This document shows positions 1 to 6,059 of a stretch of DNA of 6,059 nt, in pieces. Origin of the DNA: a virus (taxonomy: Duplodnaviria > Heunggongvirae > Uroviricota > Caudoviricetes); IMG/VR virus record IMGVR_UViG_2660238548_000015; one strand, 5' to 3'. Both the position numbers and the translations under genes were made by a program. Positions within the stretch are counted from its first letter, which is position 1. Each line of letters starts with the position of its first letter. The notes under the pieces are model-generated. The model did no database searches. It was not told where the DNA came from and saw nothing but the letters and a program-made list of their open reading frames with translations.

Positions 1-584
1 TTCTGCAGCTGGTCCGAGGTGCTGTCCGCCGTCTCCCTGACCATCCGGATGTTAAAGGGGCGGGGAGGCAGATTATCCAGAATCACCGACGCCAGAAACT
101 GCGAGGTGGTCTTGCCGTTAATGGTGACATCCTTTTCCGTCACCCATTTACCACCACGCTCAAGCTGAATCAGCAGGCGGACAGACGTCGGGTTACGGTC
201 ACCCTTTGAGGTGGTCTCCACCAGTGACTGCACCCCGAAGGTAACCCGCAGGCGGTCAATGTTCGCGGACGTAATGGTGCGCGTCACCGGCTTTGCCTTC
301 GTCACTTCCACGCCCAGTCCGGTTTCAGCTCCGGAGGACTCAAAGCCTTCCGGTGGTGTCTGCTCCTGCTCCCCGGCACGCCAGACCGCAGTCACACCGT
401 GTATCACGGGATTACCGTCCGTGTCCATCAGCGGGGTTTTGTTCACCAGGATACTCTGCAGCCCCTTCACCGGGCCTTCTATCGGTCCCTCACCAATCGC
501 ATCAATCACACTCATCATCTGCGTGGATTTGAGATTATCCTTCGCCTCTCGAGGCGTGTGCGCCCTGCCGCCACCTTTGCCCAT
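1..584 (-). CDS. J: Host specificity protein J (central tail fibre), N-terminal ~194 codons; 3' end lies beyond the left edge
   Basis: Minus-strand ATG at 584..582 preceded by GAGAGG Shine-Dalgarno (revcomp of 590..595). Hand translation [38 protein letters not shown]...[11 protein letters not shown]...DQLQ is collinear with the lambda gpJ N-terminus ([38 protein letters not shown]...) as recalled. No stop before position 1; not in the ORF track because it is open-ended. Confidence 0.9.
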
Positions 585-717
585 AATGTTCCTCTCAATT
601 GGTATTATTAATCGCAGTGATAGGATATTGCACAGCTATTGCGCGATATCATCAGAACGCTGTTTGTTACCCTGTAACCAGCAAGCTCAGTCTGTTAACG
701 GAATTAATGAGGGTTTT
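585..717. promoter_or_regulatory. Divergent intergenic region between the J start and the sodC start; likely holds the sodC promoter and RBS (GAGGG at 709..713, 4 nt before the ATG)
   Basis: 133-bp non-coding gap between divergent start codons. The RBS is read directly. Weak sigma70-like elements (TTGCAC at 628..633 with a poor -10) and an imperfect dyad GTTAC-CCT-GTAAC at 666..678 were found by eye; no promoter is confidently placed. Confidence 0.3.
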
Positions 718-1245
718 ATGAAATGTAAAATCATTGCTGCCATTGCCATGCTGACAGCAGCATCATGCGGATACGCAGCAGAACAGGAAGTCCCAATGAA
801 CCTTGTCAGTGCTGACGGAAAAGAAGTCAGCATTGGAAAAATAACCATTCAGGAGACCCCCTACGGTCTGCTGTTCACACCAGCCCTTCACTCTCTGTCT
901 GAAGGCATTCATGGTTTTCATGTGCACGAAAAAGGAAATTGCGCCCCGGCACTGAAAGACGGAAAACCGGTCGCAGCATTATCGGCTGGCGGTCACTTTG
1001 ACCCGAAAAACACCGGCAAACATCTTGGCCCCTGGTCTCCGGATGGACACCTGGGCGACCTCCCTGCGCTGTTCGTGACGCATGACGGAAAAGCGAACTA
1101 CCCGGTCCTGGCCCCGAGACTGAACTCATTAAAAGAGATTAAAGGGCGTTCTCTCATGCTTCATGCTGGCGGTGATAACCATCATGACCATCCGGAGCCC
1201 CTGGGCGGTGGTGGTGCGAGAATGGCCTGCGGCATCATTCAATAA
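718..1245 (+). CDS. sodC: Periplasmic copper/zinc superoxide dismutase (SodC family) with N-terminal signal peptide; prophage cargo ('moron') gene
   Basis: ATG at 718 with GAGGG RBS; 175 aa, stop TAA at 1243..1245. Hydrophobic N-terminus [21 protein letters not shown]. Cu,Zn-SOD hallmarks are present: [11 protein letters not shown] (Cu-ligand His, disulfide Cys), GGHFDP, GKHLGP, GHLGDLP (Zn-site His/Asp), LMLHAGGDN (Cu His), [12 protein letters not shown] (Arg and second Cys). Collinear with enterobacterial SodC proteins as recalled. The upstream part of track ORF 211..1245 is antisense to J and is not part of the gene. Confidence 0.92.
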
Positions 1246-1252
1246 TCAGTCA

Positions 1253-1280
1253 GGTAAGGGGCGGGCCCCTTACCTTTATT
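1253..1280 (+). terminator. Rho-independent terminator for sodC
   Basis: Perfect inverted repeat GGTAAGGGG (1253..1261) / CCCCTTACC (1266..1274) with 4-nt loop, followed by TTTATT (1275..1280), 8 nt after the sodC stop. Confidence 0.7.
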
Positions 1281-1393
1281 CCTCAGGACGATAAATCCTT
1301 TCTCCCTGAAAAGAACGGCACATCCTCCCTCTCTGAGTTAATGTTTTTGTCGTGACATAAGAATAATTCCTTACACTCAATCTTCGTAACGCT

Positions 1394-1438
1394 CCCGCAG
1401 TTCCTGTCCGTGAGCACTGCGGGATTTTTTCGCTTTTA
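1394..1438 (+). terminator. Second terminator-like hairpin with a T-tract, possibly a backup terminator insulating the phage genes from sodC read-through
   Basis: Inverted repeat CCCGCAGT (1394..1401) / ACTGCGGG (1416..1423) with a 14-nt loop, then ATTTTTTCGCTTTTA (1424..1438). The loop is long, so stability is uncertain. Its 3' end overlaps the stop codon of the I remnant on the other strand. Confidence 0.4.
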
Positions 1439-1582
1439 TGCCTGCCGCCCGATAACCACCACCTTCCCGTCACCGCCTTCATCACGGGTACTGATGTCCT
1501 GGGAGATTCGCCGTGAGCCAACCAGCATTTCACCGTAAGGCACCGGCATCGGGTTCCCCTGGGCAATCATGTTATCCAGCGG
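1436..1582 (-). pseudogene. I: 3'-terminal remnant of tail assembly protein I gene (last ~45 codons), left by an internal deletion
   Basis: Minus-strand frame reads ...FPLDNMIAQGNPMPVPYGEMLVGSRRISQDISTRDEGGDGKVVVIGRQA*, matching the lambda gpI C-terminus (...SLDNMVAQGNVLPVLYGEMRVGSRVVSQEISTADEGDGGQVVVIGR) as recalled. Stop TAA at 1438..1436. Homology is lost upstream of ~1582, where the H remnant ends in another frame. Confidence 0.75.
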
Positions 1583-1763
1583 AAATCCCGGCTTTTTGTG
1601 CAGCCAGCGCCTGACGACTCAGGTTCTGCTCAACGACACCGACGGTTTTTCTGGCGTCAGTCTCCAGTCCGGAAAAATGACGCCTTACCCGGCTCATCTG
1701 CTCATCGAAACGGACCGCATCCAGACTCAGGTCAATAACAAGATCACCAACCGGCTGGGACAT
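1572..1763 (-). pseudogene. H: 5' remnant of tail tape-measure protein H gene (first ~61 codons, then premature stop)
   Basis: ATG at 1763..1761 with GGGAGGTG Shine-Dalgarno. MSQPVGDLVIDLSLDAVRFDEQMSRVRRHFSGLETDARKTVGVVEQNLSRQALAAQKAGIS matches the lambda gpH N-terminus (MAEPVGDLVVDLSLDAARFDEQMARVRRHFSG...AAQKAGIS) as recalled, then ends AG* at 1574..1572; lambda H is ~850 aa. No continuation of H homology in any frame downstream. Confidence 0.85.
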
Positions 1764-2208
1764 ATCTCACACCTCCCGGAATCCCCGCTGAAGCCATCAT
1801 TAATGCGACATCATCCTCGCTGACATCCGCCACATCCGCAGACGATAAAATCTCACGCCCTCCGTCCCCACCAAACCGTACGCCTCCGGCAAGTCCTGCC
1901 GCTTTCTGCATCAGCATTTTTTCCTCATCCGGCATCTCCGTCTGCGCTTTCTCACGCCGGGGGGCAAGCAGACTGAAATCAGAGGGATGCATATCCGGAT
2001 CGCAAAAAAACAGGCTGAGTACGGCGTACGTCAGCCCGGAAAAATGCATATCCAGTTGGGTATCGTGAAAATAATGCGTACGGTAAAAATGTCGCCAGTC
2101 GGCATATTCGGTGGATGTCATCCCGGCAAGCATGGCGCGCCAGTCAGGCCTCCCCATCTCACGCGCCAGTCTGAGGGCAAAATTCAGCTCGCCGTCGAAG
2201 ACTTTCCC
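1744..2208 (-). CDS. T: Tail assembly chaperone T region, expressed only as a G-T fusion by -1 programmed ribosomal frameshift (no independent start)
   Basis: The -1 frame relative to G is open from the slippery site (2208) to stop TGA at 1746..1744, reading GKVFDGELNLPLRLAREMGRPDWRAMLAGMTSTEYADW... Track ORF 1744..2157 is the part after the first in-frame Met. Coordinates describe the shifted frame, not an independent gene. Confidence 0.8.
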   Translation of the reverse strand, partial: GKVFDGELNFALRLAREMGRPDWRAMLAGMTSTEYADWRHFYRTHYFHDTQLDMHFSGLTYAVLSLFFCDPDMHPSDFSLLAPRREKAQTEMPDEEKMLMQKAAGLAGGVRFGGDGGREILSSADVADVSEDDVALMMASAGIPGGVRYVPAGW

Positions 2209-2615
2209 GCAGAAAAATCATCATCAGTCAGCGCGTTATATTTCGCCACTTCGGTGCTGTCAGTATCCGGACGAACAGCTTCGCTCATCCCGGACAGACG
2301 CAACACCACATCTTCCGCCCGGGCAATGGCATCCGCAGGCCAGGTGGTGAGCACCTCCTGTTCGATCTGCATCACAGCCTCATTCATTGACGGTGATGCC
2401 GTTTTCTGCGGATGGTTATGCCACAGGGACATCGCCACCAGAAACGCGCCGGTTCTGACGAGATCTTCCACGCTTACCTGCAGGTTGCCGCTGGATTCTG
2501 CCTGTTCTGCACGCCGTTTCAGGAGGGCAAGATGCTCAATACGCTGCAGCGCAGACAATTCGGAAAGCGTGACGGACACACCGTTATATTCAAATTGTTC
2601 TGTTTTCAGAAACAT
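2184..2615 (-). CDS. G: Tail assembly chaperone G
   Basis: ATG at 2615..2613 with GGAGGT Shine-Dalgarno (revcomp of 2621..2626). 143 aa, MFLKTEQFEYNGVSVTLSELSALQRIEHLALLKRRAEQAES..., closely matching lambda gpG as recalled; stop TGA at 2186..2184. Confidence 0.93.
   Translation of the reverse strand: MFLKTEQFEYNGVSVTLSELSALQRIEHLALLKRRAEQAESSGNLQVSVEDLVRTGAFLVAMSLWHNHPQKTASPSMNEAVMQIEQEVLTTWPADAIARAEDVVLRLSGMSEAVRPDTDSTEVAKYNALTDDDFSAGKSSTAS
2202..2208 (-). other. Programmed -1 ribosomal frameshift slippery heptamer G GGA AAG for the G to G-T fusion
   Basis: Plus-strand CTTTCCC at 2202..2208 is GGGAAAG on the coding strand, in the zero frame as G-GGA-AAG (Gly-Lys of ...SAGKSSTAS*), 6 codons before the G stop. 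Same heptamer and position as the lambda G/GT site. Confidence 0.8.
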
Positions 2616-2628
2616 GTATTACCTCCGT

Positions 2629-3381
2629 TTACCCTGCAGCGCCCGCTTCAGTAACGGTGACTTCAGCCACTGCGGCGAACTGACCATTTCCGCTCACCAC
2701 AGGGATCTGCACCTTACCTGTCGCCACGCCGTTTACCGTAATTGTCATATCTTTCACACTAATGGTGGCTTTCGACGGATCGGCGGAAACCACTCTGAAC
2801 GTCTTGTCGGTTGCACTTTCCGGCTCAAAAGAAACCGTCAGGGTGGTTGTTTTCCCTTTTGCCACCGTACCGGATGTCGGCGTCACCTTAATCGCAGTGA
2901 CCGGCGTAATTTTGCTGCGTTCTTCCGCTACAGAAGGTTTGCCCACGTTGGTCACTTTCACCGTGCGGGTGATCACTTCTTTCGCCGTCACGGCCTTACC
3001 GATACTGCTGACCCAGCCACGAAACACATCCACCGTGCCGTTCGGAAAACGGATTTTATAGGCCCGCACATCCCCGCTTTCAAACCAGCCTATAAGCCCT
3101 TTCTGACCTTCTTCTCCCGGTTTCCAGGCCAGCGTAAAACTGGTATCTCCTGCAGACTTCTGCCCCTGCCCGGTCGCGGTCCAGTCCGCGTCTTCATCAT
3201 CCAGGTAGTTATCATCGTAGGGTTCTGCCGTCATCTCGCCCGGCGTCAGATCCTTCACCTTAGCCAGTCGCAGCCAGTCATCGTCTGACAACGGGTTTGC
3301 ATAGGCGTCACCCTGACCGTTATAAACCCACAGGGTGGTACCGGCACCTTTTACCGGCTCAAGGGGATTTGGTGTTGCCAT
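2629..3381 (-). CDS. V: Major tail tube protein V, with C-terminal Ig-like (Big_2-type) domain
   Basis: ATG at 3381..3379 with GAGGA Shine-Dalgarno. 250 aa, [36 protein letters not shown]...[42 protein letters not shown]..., near-collinear with lambda gpV as recalled. The C-terminal ~90 aa ([23 protein letters not shown]...[37 protein letters not shown]) has the Ig-like pattern known for gpV. Confidence 0.95.
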
Positions 3382-3388
3382 ATCGTCC

Positions 3389-3784
3389 TCACATCTCGTA
3401 TGTAATGGAATAAGTCAGATCCGCAGAACTCCATAACGCCATATCGTCATCACGACGATACTCATAGCCCTGCGTAACCATCGTCGTAATCAGGTCTGCC
3501 AGTGCCGGGATCGCAGTCATCGCCGGATAAATCCGGCTTTCCATCCACGAATCCAGCTCCGAATCCGGTACCTGTGCTGGTAAAAACACCTCAATATGCA
3601 GTGTGGCCCGCCAGGTATCTGCATCCAGCTCTTCACCGGTATACTCTGCATCCGTCAGATAAACCGCGACGGCCGGAAAATCCTCTTCGTCAAAAACAAC
3701 GGGGCGACCATCAAACAGCGTCGCCCCGTGTTCATGCAGCTCCAGTGCATCCAGCACTGCCGCACGGATATCAGTATGTTTCAT
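3389..3784 (-). CDS. U: Tail terminator protein U
   Basis: 131 aa, [87 protein letters not shown]..., closely matching lambda gpU as recalled. Start ATG overlaps the Z stop as ATGA. Confidence 0.95.
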
Positions 3785-4314
3785 CGTTTTATCGCAATCC
3801 TCAGTTGTTGTTTCAGCGCGTATGCCAGTTCTCCGGGCAGACGTTCACGCCGGATACGGTCAACATTCTCATCAAACGCCTGTTTCAGTGGGGCCGCCAT
3901 CGGGATTTTCACCACATCAATGGGGTAACGGTTTTTCCCGGCCACACGCTGCATGACATGCCAGCGACCATTTTTTAATCGCTGAATAAATGCCCGCTGA
4001 TAACGATGCTGACCGGCTTTGAGTATGCTGTCCGGACGACGCCCCGGCATCCTGATCCCCAGCTTAATCACCGGGAGATCACCGCGGTTAACGATAATTC
4101 TGGCATTCGGATTTCTGACCGTGGCCCGTTTCAGTCTGGACCGTTCCTTTACCAGTTTCCGGCGAACCTTTGTCTCCCGGGCAACCTGTGATGAAGACTG
4201 ATTAATCGCCGTTGTGGCCACGCGGTTAATGGCCATTGCTGAAGCCGCCGGAATGGCGTTTTTACGAACCCGGCTCAGATTTTCAATCGTCTGATCAAGC
4301 CCTTTTATCGCCAT
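3781..4314 (-). CDS. Z: Tail completion protein Z
   Basis: ATG at 4314..4312 with AGGGTGA Shine-Dalgarno-like sequence. 177 aa, MAIKGLDQTIENLSRVRKNAIPAASAMAINRVATTAINQSSSQVARETKVRRKLVKERSRLKRATV...AFIQRLKNGRWHVMQRVAGKNRYPIDVVKIPMA...RERLP, matching lambda gpZ as recalled. Confidence 0.93.
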   Translation of the reverse strand: MAIKGLDQTIENLSRVRKNAIPAASAMAINRVATTAINQSSSQVARETKVRRKLVKERSRLKRATVRNPNARIIVNRGDLPVIKLGIRMPGRRPDSILKAGQHRYQRAFIQRLKNGRWHVMQRVAGKNRYPIDVVKIPMAAPLKQAFDENVDRIRRERLPGELAYALKQQLRIAIKR

Positions 4315-4328
4315 AATTCACCCTGCGT

Positions 4329-4682
4329 TTATCGTCGCCGGTTAACGGCGGGTGGTTGACCACGGTTGAGCCAGAGATAACAGCTGCCCCCGTCATCCGG
4401 AGAAACACGATCCACCCAGAATATCTCACCATTAATGGTCAGCGTGTCACCACGCCGCACGGCACGAACCGTATCCGTCCGCACAAATAATGACGGGCTG
4501 CTTCCTTCAATACGGACCCCGCCACCGGCAAACCCCAGCGACTCCGGATCGTCAAAAACCCCCTGAACTTCGCTGCCACACTGTGCCCCCGAGGTGAACT
4601 GCGCACAGAGCCCCATCACTTCAACAATCGTGCTGTCCACCCCGGCAAGGGCAGCATCAAAGGCATTCTGAAAATCACGCAT
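4329..4682 (-). CDS. FII: Head-tail joining protein FII (head completion)
   Basis: Homology to lambda gpFII (MADFDNLFDAAIA...GVFDDPE...GVRVEGSSPSLFVRTDEVRQLRRGDTLTI...FWVDRVSPDDGGSCHLWLGRG.PPAVNRRR) begins at MRDFQNAFDAALAG. Start chosen at ATG 4682..4680, giving 117 aa, the lambda length as I recall it. In-frame ATGs at 4700 and 4718 are alternative starts. Stop TAA at 4331..4329. Confidence 0.85.
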   Translation of the reverse strand: MRDFQNAFDAALAGVDSTIVEVMGLCAQFTSGAQCGSEVQGVFDDPESLGFAGGGVRIEGSSPSLFVRTDTVRAVRRGDTLTINGEIFWVDRVSPDDGGSCYLWLNRGQPPAVNRRR

Positions 4683-5049
4683 AAACAGCCATTCCGCCAT
4701 CAACGTGTGTTTTTGCATCTGAGGACATAATCAGAATCACCCGACCAACATCCGCAATCTCAACGGATTCCCCTGTTTCACCATCAATGCCACAGAGATG
4801 GAGGCAGGTCAGAACTCTGATGCGCGTTAACGCACCGGATGTATCCTCACGAACATCATGAGCCGCGGTTTCCCGCTCCCGGATCACCGTATCCCCAACC
4901 TGAACATCCTCGCCGGATGACTGTATTTCCTCTTCCCATTCCGCCACCCGCTGCGCTATCTCTGCGGCACTCCCGGATATATCCGGCTCACGCCCCAGAA
5001 TCAGGGCCAGTTCATCAAGCCGTTTCAGATTTTGCTCTTTCGTTGCCAT
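4675..5049 (-). CDS. FI: DNA-packaging / head assembly protein FI
   Basis: ATG at 5049..5047 preceded by AGGGGG Shine-Dalgarno (revcomp of 5055..5060). MATKEQNLKRLDELALILGREPDISGSAAEIAQRVAEWEEE... resembles lambda gpFI in its N-terminal region and acidic middle. The track's longer ORF to 5097 begins at a GTG with no RBS and is not preferred. Stop TGA at 4677..4675. Confidence 0.8.
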   Translation of the reverse strand: MATKEQNLKRLDELALILGREPDISGSAAEIAQRVAEWEEEIQSSGEDVQVGDTVIRERETAAHDVREDTSGALTRIRVLTCLHLCGIDGETGESVEIADVGRVILIMSSDAKTHVDGGMAVYA

Positions 5050-5100
5050 ATCAGCCCCCTGTGAAAAAAGACACGGGGGCATTTCGCCCCCGCTCACGGA
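5050..5100 (-). promoter_or_regulatory. E-FI intergenic GC-rich hairpin with U-tract (terminator/attenuator-like), with an alternative pairing that sequesters the FI Shine-Dalgarno
   Basis: On the minus-strand mRNA: CGGGGGC-GAAAU-GCCCCCG (plus 5092..5074, 7-bp GC stem) followed by UGUCUUUUUUC, just after the E stop. The same GCCCCC segment (plus 5075..5080) can instead pair with GGGGGC in the FI Shine-Dalgarno (plus 5054..5059). Seen directly in the sequence; function is inferred. Confidence 0.5.
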
Positions 5101-6059
5101 TTATTTCACCTGTACCACCACAAACTCATCCGGGTCCGGCAACACCATCAGCGGCGCGGACTGCGTCATGGTAAATTCACGGGCGGGATCCCCCACCGTC
5201 AGCCAGTGTTTCGGATAACGGGAAGAGGCCACCACACCTTCGGACAACGCCTGCGCATCCTGAATGGCACCGTAACAACGGATCCCATCTGCAGCAGTAT
5301 TCCCCAGAACCAGCATGCCCTCCGGCAGATAACGTTTTTCGATACCGTCTTCTGCTATATAAGACGTTTTCGCCACCACAATGGCCAGATCGCCGTAATA
5401 CCCCTTGAAGGACACCACTGCGCCCAGATCTTTCACTGCCGTTTCGAGTTGAGAATTTGAACCGCGACGGGTATCCAGTTTTTCGCGGAACAGCTTAAAA
5501 CCATTCAGAAGACGCCAGACGGTACCGTCCATAATGGCAATATTCACAAGACCGCTGGCCTGGTCGCAGTAGAGGTCAAGATCATGTGTAGGATCGAACG
5601 TGTCACGATCCTGTTTTGACCACTCCTTACCACTACCCTGAGTGATGTTATTCTTCGTCGACCTGCCAAAATCGACCTCAATTTTCTCGAACTGGTCTCC
5701 TTCCATCGTATATTTGCCATACAACACAGCATTTACCGCCTGTATTTCTTCCACCTGGACAATCGCGTGCTCTTCCTGTTTGAGGTTATCGGTAATGATA
5801 CGCAGACGGCGGTAAGCCGGATCGTTCAGTTGAGCCGGATCTTCACCAGGAAGGCGCTCAACCGCCTGCTGGTAATTAAATTCGTGTTTCGGCTTGACGT
5901 AGCCCGGACGTAACACGCGGGTTTCACCACCACGATGACGCAGCACTTTTCCTTCAACAACCGGGGAGACATAGGCCGCCACCGGCGTTTTTCCGGTAAT
6001 TTTGTCCAGCATCACCTCTTCGGTATGGAAATTCACCGTACGGCGGAAAAACAGCTCCA
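5101..6059 (-). CDS. E: Major capsid protein E; 5' end (~20-40 codons) lies beyond the right edge
   Basis: Stop TAA at 5103..5101. The frame is open to the window edge and reads ...ELFFRRTVNFHTEEVMLDKITGKTPVAAYVSPVVEGKVLRHRGGETRVLRPGYVKPKHE...KLDTRRGSNSQLETAVKDLG...GDPAREFTMTQSAPLMVLPDPDEFVVVQVK, collinear with lambda gpE from about residue 25 as recalled. The track's 'M' at 6036 is an internal GTG (Val), not the true start. Confidence 0.95.
   Translation of the reverse strand, partial: ELFFRRTVNFHTEEVMLDKITGKTPVAAYVSPVVEGKVLRHRGGETRVLRPGYVKPKHEFNYQQAVERLPGEDPAQLNDPAYRRLRIITDNLKQEEHAIVQVEEIQAVNAVLYGKYTMEGDQFEKIEVDFGRSTKNNITQGSGKEWSKQDRDTFDPTHDLDLYCDQASGLVNIAIMDGTVWRLLNGFKLFREKLDTRRGSNSQLETAVKDLGAVVSFKGYYGDLAIVVAKTSYIAEDGIEKRYLPEGMLVLGNTAADGIRCYGAIQDAQALSEGVVASSRYPKHWLTVGDPAREFTMTQSAPLMVLPDPDEFVVVQVK

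Follow-up and report, generated by a model that had tools for sequence, protein, structure and literature searches.

The locus described here lies on a 6,059-bp stretch of DNA, referred to throughout as the window, that corresponds in full to contig JZDV01000026.1 of assembly GCA_000965575.1 from the STEC strain St. Olav40. This strain belongs to phylogroup B1, is O-untypable, and has the same profile as strain St. Olav39 (PMC6033998). Its draft genome was assembled from MiSeq (2x300) reads with SPAdes 3.5.0 at a coverage cut-off of 20, and the accompanying genome paper describes many small contigs and an abundance of phage repeats (PMC4432327). The contig consists of phage DNA only, and its two ends, which fall inside genes E and J, are likely repeat boundaries; if so, other near-identical copies of J and E exist in the genome. 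A contig of St. Olav39 (JZDU01000009.1) ends at most 6 bases from the same position in J (codon 194).

The minus strand of the window encodes a lambda-type late operon in the order E, FI, FII, Z, U, V, G, T, H′, ′I and the start of J, where H′ and ′I are what remains of genes H and I. The cargo gene ("moron") sodC is located between ′I and J and is read from the plus strand, opposite to the others. Genes were assigned from Pfam matches on the window and from the precomputed Pfam families of the called genes. An Rfam scan of the window returned no match, and a promoter scan of positions 560-2200 found no sigma-70-like site. By this layout the element would be a lambda-type prophage, i.e., one with a long, non-contractile tail, known here from one 6-kb contig. 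The bacterial isolate from which the contig comes and the integrated state of its counterpart in strain WL1277 suggest that it is integrated in the bacterial chromosome. That counterpart, a prophage of an O121 strain (NZ_CP193494.1, ~2.006-2.056 Mb; loci L009, L020 and L021), has the same J-sodC-I arrangement with identical sodC and spacers, but retains H, M, L, K and I in full. It serves as the main reference below and in Table 1, under the name L009.

Table 1. Genes and other features of the 6,059-bp window, with the strand of each and the comparison on which its assignment or condition is based.
Feature	Position	Strand	Evidence and condition
E, major capsid protein	5101..6059	-	PF03864; 3′ 959 nt, runs off contig end; 100% DNA identity to L009
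FI, DNA packaging protein	4675..5049	-	PF14000; intact; identical to L009
FII, head-tail joining protein	4329..4682	-	PF05354; intact; identical to L009
Z, tail completion protein	3781..4314	-	PF06763; intact; 2 amino-acid differences from L009
U, tail terminator	3389..3784	-	PF06141 on called gene; intact; identical to L009
V, major tail tube protein with C-terminal Ig-like domain	2629..3381	-	PF16461, PF02368; intact; 1 amino-acid difference from L009
G, tail assembly chaperone	2184..2615	-	PF06894, E 4.5e-51; intact
T reading frame, tail assembly chaperone (G-T fusion)	1744..2157	-	PF06223; intact; protein identical to L009
H′, truncated tape-measure gene	1572..1763	-	Lambda gpH homology; DNA 100% identical to H 5′ ends of L009 and L002
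Deletion junction	1580..1581	.	CG is the sole dinucleotide assignable to both parental sides; three-way alignments
′I, 3′ end of tail-tip assembly gene I (~146 nt; 48 codons + stop)	1436..1581	-	gpI homology
Terminator-like G+C-rich hairpin just 3′ of sodC, retained	1252..1275	+	Consensus scan only
sodC, periplasmic Cu,Zn superoxide dismutase	718..1245	+	PF00080, E 3.9e-32
J, tail tip/host specificity protein, first 194 codons	3..584	-	PF24801, E 2.1e-34; runs off contig end

The late genes that remain are well preserved. All have the same lengths as in L009, are free of internal stops, and differ from it by 0-3 amino acids, in agreement with an earlier note on this sequence, which had judged the upstream head and tail-tube genes to be intact. 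Close to its 3′ end, G contains G GGA AAG, a -1 slippery heptamer of the lambda type (minus strand, 2208..2202), in register with T, and T overlaps the start of H′ by 20 nt, just as it overlaps H in intact relatives. The G-T chaperone could still be made from these frames, even though its client, the tape measure, is gone. At the DNA level, identity to L009 is 100% in H′, T, U, FII, FI, E, sodC, and both spacers that flank sodC, and 98.6% in ′I. The differences from L009 are clustered, with 11 in Z (3781-4314) and 5 in G (2184-2615). Such clusters suggest small patches swapped by homologous recombination among related prophages, and the true parent of the element would be a mosaic relative rather than L009 itself.

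Phage lambda itself offers a more distant comparison. In its V-G-T-H-M-L-K-I-J region (NC_001416, 8955-18903), gene order, orientation, and the G/G-T -1 heptamer are the same as in the window, and the Pfam families of V, G, T and J agree as well. Compared with lambda, however, the window has no M, L or K, H is missing from codon 62 onward, I has lost its first three quarters, and a sodC cargo gene between I and J is found in the window only.

What remains of the tape-measure gene is its 5′ end. A total of 184 nt of H is retained (61 codons plus 1 nt), down to window position 1580, and the resulting open reading frame (1763..1572, minus strand) comprises 63 codons. Its product shares 81% identity with lambda gpH over residues 1-63 (E 2e-34) and matches the tape-measure chain of the lambda tail structure (PDB 8iyk_H) at E 4.9e-28. 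Against the tape measure of an intact relative, the agreement extends over exactly 61 residues. It is followed by a foreign Ala-Gly, encoded by the codons GCT GGA, which are ′I DNA read out of frame, and then by the stop codon TAA at 1574-1572. Full-length relatives, with tape measures of about 850 aa, carry the TMP_2 (PF06791) and Tape_meas_lam_C (PF09718) families, in regions that determine how long the tail is and extend to the tip; the 63-codon frame has no TMP match in Pfam, and a sub-threshold match to RmuC was the sole hit.

The remnant of gene I is its 3′ end, of which 144-146 nt are retained. The frame that ends at 1436 is 73% identical to residues 179-223 of lambda gpI (E 6e-21) and coincides exactly with the C-terminal end (…LDNMIAQGNPMPVPYGEML…VVVIGRQA) of the gpI homologue, 193 aa long, that intact relatives encode. 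In lambda, gpI consists of an N-terminal domain, the hydrophobic helices H1 and H2, a plug (residues 159-175), and C-terminal beta-strands that thread gpJ; three copies of gpI are, together with gpH, parts of the tail tip, in which gpI from residue 167 on remains bound to gpJ (PMC11101478). The ′I remnant is without the N-terminal domain, both helices, and the plug, and keeps only the C-terminal beta-strand segment. It has no Pfam match, Lambda_tail_I (PF06805) included.

Near the join lies the sequence TAACATG, in which the H′ stop codon is followed, one nucleotide on and in a different frame, by an ATG at 1570-1568 that opens a 44-codon reading frame (1570..1436). The TAA-C-ATG spacing would allow reinitiation, and there is no evident Shine-Dalgarno sequence in the 30 nt before the ATG. 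A 44-aa peptide made by such coupling is a prediction that is unlikely to matter. The same 44-aa frame is called wherever gene I is broken, be it by frameshifts, IS elements, contig edges, or another deletion, and since gene finders call it at many broken I genes, an internal Met codon accounts for it as a mere by-product. For instance, at about locus position 6001 of three relatives (L011, L014 and L015), gene I is called as a product of 148-182 aa plus the same 44-aa frame, with an ATGA overlap, a split that indicates frameshifts or sequencing errors. In the first of these relatives, L011, K and I are moreover separated by an IS (rve-family transposase).

Alignment to intact relatives, a check that the earlier note had proposed, maps the junction exactly. 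Nucleotide homology on the I side runs to 1581 (or to 1579, depending on the relative) and homology on the H side begins at 1580, such that the two abut at 1579-1582. Against the prophage of O157:H7 TW14359 (L001), blastn paired window positions 1-1581 with 8442-10022 and 1580-3376 with 14629-16425; the two segments are collinear and 4,606 bp are missing between them. Against L009, positions 1-1579 correspond to 2819-4397 (98.8% identity) and 1580-6059 to 9001-13480 (99.6%, gapless), with 4,603 bp missing. The missing interval is annotated as containing I (582 nt), K (C40 peptidase), L, M (330 nt), and the tape-measure gene H (2,580 nt). What the window has lost amounts to 93% of H (codons 62-859), M, L and K in their entirety, and ~75% of I (its first ~145 codons).

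The earlier note thus stands in its account of the locus. It had seen an H frame that resembles the lambda tape-measure N-terminus for ~61 codons before ending in AG*, the last ~45 residues of gpI in another frame downstream, and two homologies that abut within a few bases (about 1575..1583). From these it had proposed one deletion of roughly 4-5 kb that took away M, L and K completely and H and I for the most part, and it had pointed to the TAACATG arrangement with its 44-codon frame, now located as given above. The homology of the two frames to H and I, on which it had made its reading depend, is likewise upheld by the E values of both comparisons with lambda.

The sequence at the join is informative as to mechanism. 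At most, the two parental sides have CG in common (1580-1581), and 0-1 nt if the I-side parent is L009. Because of this, illegitimate recombination is favored over either homologous exchange or assembly collapse, and the junction would be the signature of an essentially homology-free process, i.e., illegitimate end joining or replication slippage. A chance resemblance is excluded, since the flanks are 98.6-100% identical in DNA to an intact relative. Moreover, L009 contains both flanks in the same order and the same orientation, and because it does so at 98.6-100% identity, one prophage type suffices to supply them both.

Given this collinear intact counterpart, a simple deletion would be much the most economical reading. 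The preferred explanation, to which a probability of about 0.9 is assigned, is a single intra-element deletion of ~4.6 kb that arose by illegitimate recombination inside the tail operon of the St. Olav40 lambda-type prophage and left an element unable to build its own tail, a defective member of the prophage pool. The event would have joined H at codon 61/62 to I at a position where 146 nt of that gene remain, both genes being on the same strand. On the H side it would have spared E, FI, FII, Z, U, V, and G/G-T, and on the I side sodC and J. With the join out of frame, H′ would come to a stop after two foreign codons, and the leftover H′ and ′I frames would be non-functional debris.

Alternatively, the two flanks could have come from different elements, through illegitimate recombination between two co-resident lambdoid prophages or phage genomes that produced a hybrid, perhaps together with a larger rearrangement of the chromosome. 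STEC genomes contain many similar prophages among which recombination is documented (PMC2669165), and the flanks do differ somewhat in their closest relatives: ′I is marginally nearer to the O157 type, with 1 mismatch to O157:H7 prophages and 2 to L009, whereas H′-E is closest to the O103/O121 type. A difference of 1-2 mismatches in 146 nt is nevertheless ordinary allelic noise, and with both flanks collinear in the single intact L009 a second partner is not needed. A larger rearrangement cannot be read either way from a 6-kb contig. An exchange between elements is therefore regarded as unlikely.

A second alternative is that the junction arose in the assembly, as a chimeric join of two lambdoid prophages or a collapsed repeat, and that the real locus is intact. 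The contig is short (6,059 bp), it belongs to an Illumina/SPAdes draft of a prophage-rich STEC genome with many small contigs, and the best matches of its flanks differ slightly between relatives, all of which are circumstances in which such errors may be suspected. Collapse of a de Bruijn graph, however, requires a shared k-mer, and the join shares no more than 2 nt; reads that span the junction must consequently exist, and the draft was made with a coverage cut-off of 20. The junction also recurs outside this assembly. The 63-aa H′ product and the junction are found in JZDU01000009.1 from St. Olav39, in JBBUZD010000229.1 (GCA_045756045.1), and in a metagenome scaffold from ENA (ERZ28634129), so that four assemblies, one of them from a different NCBI project and another a metagenome, contain it. 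The three additional contigs align without gaps across the junction and are identical to the window apart from six N in JBBUZD010000229.1. St. Olav39 and St. Olav40 share phylogroup, virulence profile, hospital, and sequence and are probably one clone, for which reason the number of independent observations is about three rather than four. Mis-assembly, which the earlier note had named as the finding that would overturn its reading, is very unlikely with 0-2 nt shared at the join and four assemblies from at least three sources.

The six N of JBBUZD010000229.1 all lie in ′I, at positions equivalent to 1505, 1508, 1511, 1514, 1532 and 1556 of the window. They had at first the appearance of mismatches, and thus of divergence that followed the deletion, a reading rejected on the grounds that they are N characters and not substitutions. 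The cluster looks like masked mixed bases, e.g., from reads of other gene I copies that piled up there.

That H′ (63 aa) and/or the 44-aa gpI peptide is expressed and has a selected role, such as interference with tail assembly, is extremely improbable: the upstream late operon is undamaged, as are the G-T slippery site and the TAA-C-ATG spacing, gpI from residue 167 stays with gpJ in the lambda tip (PMC11101478), and the junction is unchanged in several assemblies, but the plug (159-175), both helices, and the N-terminal domain of gpI are missing, the peptide has neither a Pfam match nor an evident Shine-Dalgarno sequence, the 44-aa frame accompanies broken I genes in general, and the junction is very rare (see below) with no sign of selection. 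There is equally little chance for a more specific version, in which the H′ or ′I peptides would poison the tail assembly of co-resident or superinfecting lambdoid phages through G/G-T or through the gpI-binding gaps of gpJ; if true, it would make a decayed prophage an assembly-interference element.

Heads and tails of lambda-type phages are assembled separately. In the absence of a tape measure, the scaffold for tube polymerization is missing, and in the absence of M, L, K and I there is no tip complex. At least one virion-essential gene is lost, as in other defective prophages, with H, M, L, K and I all deleted or truncated. There is no complete M, L, K, I set between H and J, and the locus is a deleted derivative of the lambda-type module. 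Neither a full-length tape measure nor a complete gpI is encoded, although gpH N-terminal and gpI C-terminal homology is present. Because the tape measure and the tip genes M, L, K and I are lost, the element is predicted to be unable to form a tail autonomously.

On this point, the earlier note had called the prophage tail-defective and cryptic for particle production. The first part of that description holds, as the element cannot encode its own tail. The term "cryptic", on the other hand, is too strong, because tail proteins can come in trans from other members of a STEC prophage pool. Several lambdoid prophages with near-identical tail modules coexist in STEC genomes, and defective lambdoid prophages of O157 Sakai are released as particles, with some of these prophages also being transferred; Asadulghani et al. 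(2009) explain this release and transfer by complementation and recombination in the prophage pool (PMC2669165). The St. Olav40 element would persist as a defective member of its host's lambdoid prophage pool, still carrying sodC, and particle formation, if any, would need tail proteins or recombination from co-resident prophages.

The Sakai prophages are also a parallel to the window as regards decay. Like the window element, Sp3-Sp15 of O157:H7 Sakai are lambdoid and have lesions in morphogenesis genes (deletions, frameshifts, and IS insertions), including those for tail functions; they carry virulence-related cargo, and their morphogenetic modules are near-identical to those of co-resident complementing prophages (PMC2669165). 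In contrast to Sakai, the window comes from an O-untypable STEC of phylogroup B1, and its H′-′I junction occurs in no complete genome searched. Such prophage defects, and their rescue by interactions between prophages, have already been described for O157 Sakai (PMC2669165). The H′-′I deletion is accordingly ordinary prophage decay, well documented in STEC, and the junction is new only as a private allele.

The junction is a rare, lineage-restricted allele. A search of 5,426 complete E. coli genomes did not find it, and scans for the exact junction returned nothing from the GTDB species representatives, IMG/VR contigs, or JGI metagenome contigs. The earlier note had raised the question of whether the same junction is fixed across related strains; the further occurrences identified are those in the three other assemblies named above. 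The two sides taken separately do have matches. Among the 5,426 genomes, the right-hand part has 100% matches in many O103, O121, O45 and other genomes, although only from window position 1580 on, and the left-hand part (560-1581), comprising J, sodC, and a gene annotated as "tail assembly protein", has a 99.8% match in O157:H7 and O55:H7 genomes. Two complete genomes that resembled carriers of the junction were discarded. In strain N25, the only one that seemed to cover at least 80% of the junction query, the search had joined parts of a tandem duplication of the tail block. Strain E2, with 94% of the whole window, proved to consist of three joined pieces spread over 9.3 kb, the tape measure and L among the genes covered, and its locus is intact.

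The duplication in N25 (L003, NZ_CM165897.1) occupies positions 1255-13378, where two copies of G-T-H-M-L-K-I are separated by a partial V. The duplication may be genuine or may be due to the assembly of that record.

The practical significance of the locus is small, and it does not open a new question. For annotation, the "tail protein" KJW37780.1 can be recognized as a 61-residue stump. The junction may also serve as a lineage marker for what would be a small lineage of B1 STEC, with the 30-mer CATGTTATCCAGCGGAAATCCCGGCTTTTT as the marker for the junction allele. Finally, the locus adds one more example of J-side cargo genes such as sodC being kept while morphogenesis genes decay.

Other deletions with this general outcome are present among the relatives. 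For example, the prophage of O157:H7 TW14359 (L001) resembles the window in having an internal deletion of the late operon with the sodC-J side intact, but differs in end points and extent: at 16403-16666, a partial major capsid gene (E′) abuts V, and FI, FII, Z and U are missing. A Logan contig (L017, SRR36098301_543) likewise has a late-operon deletion and keeps the sodC-J side, while the other end of its deletion lies in the terminase gene. There, at 2620-2635, gene A, for the large subunit of the terminase, runs directly into the 3′ end of I, with sodC and J coming next, and ~12.8 kb are missing relative to L009. The I-side end point of this deletion is 36 bp from that of the window. A hotspot for breakage on the I side was considered on account of this proximity and rejected, since a lookup with the exact 44-aa frame finds only end points that lie just upstream of its ATG; the proximity is probably an ascertainment effect of that lookup.

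The sodC gene of the window encodes the same protein, WP_000649829.1, as those of L009 and L001. Prophages of O157:H7, O55:H7 and O121 have sodC at the same location, as do two Stx2a phages with deposited genomes (LC567829 and LC567840), and it is missing from lambda and from a relative in O103:H2 12009. An origin of the module from an Stx-converting phage is unsupported, as the deposited Stx2a phages show 97.6-97.7% identity and the best counterpart is a non-Stx prophage that carries effector genes. In the phage collection searched, nothing exceeded about 94% identity across H′-E.

That counterpart, the non-Stx prophage of WL1277, is located at tRNA-Ser/mtfA. Beyond J it carries lom and tail fibres, followed by the type III effector genes nleB2, a partial nleC (nleC′), a frameshifted nleH, and nleF, and frameshifts are annotated in its integrase and gpC (S49 peptidase) genes. 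The closest counterpart with an intact tail region is thus also in decay. The same frameshifted gpC is seen in RM13322 (L010).
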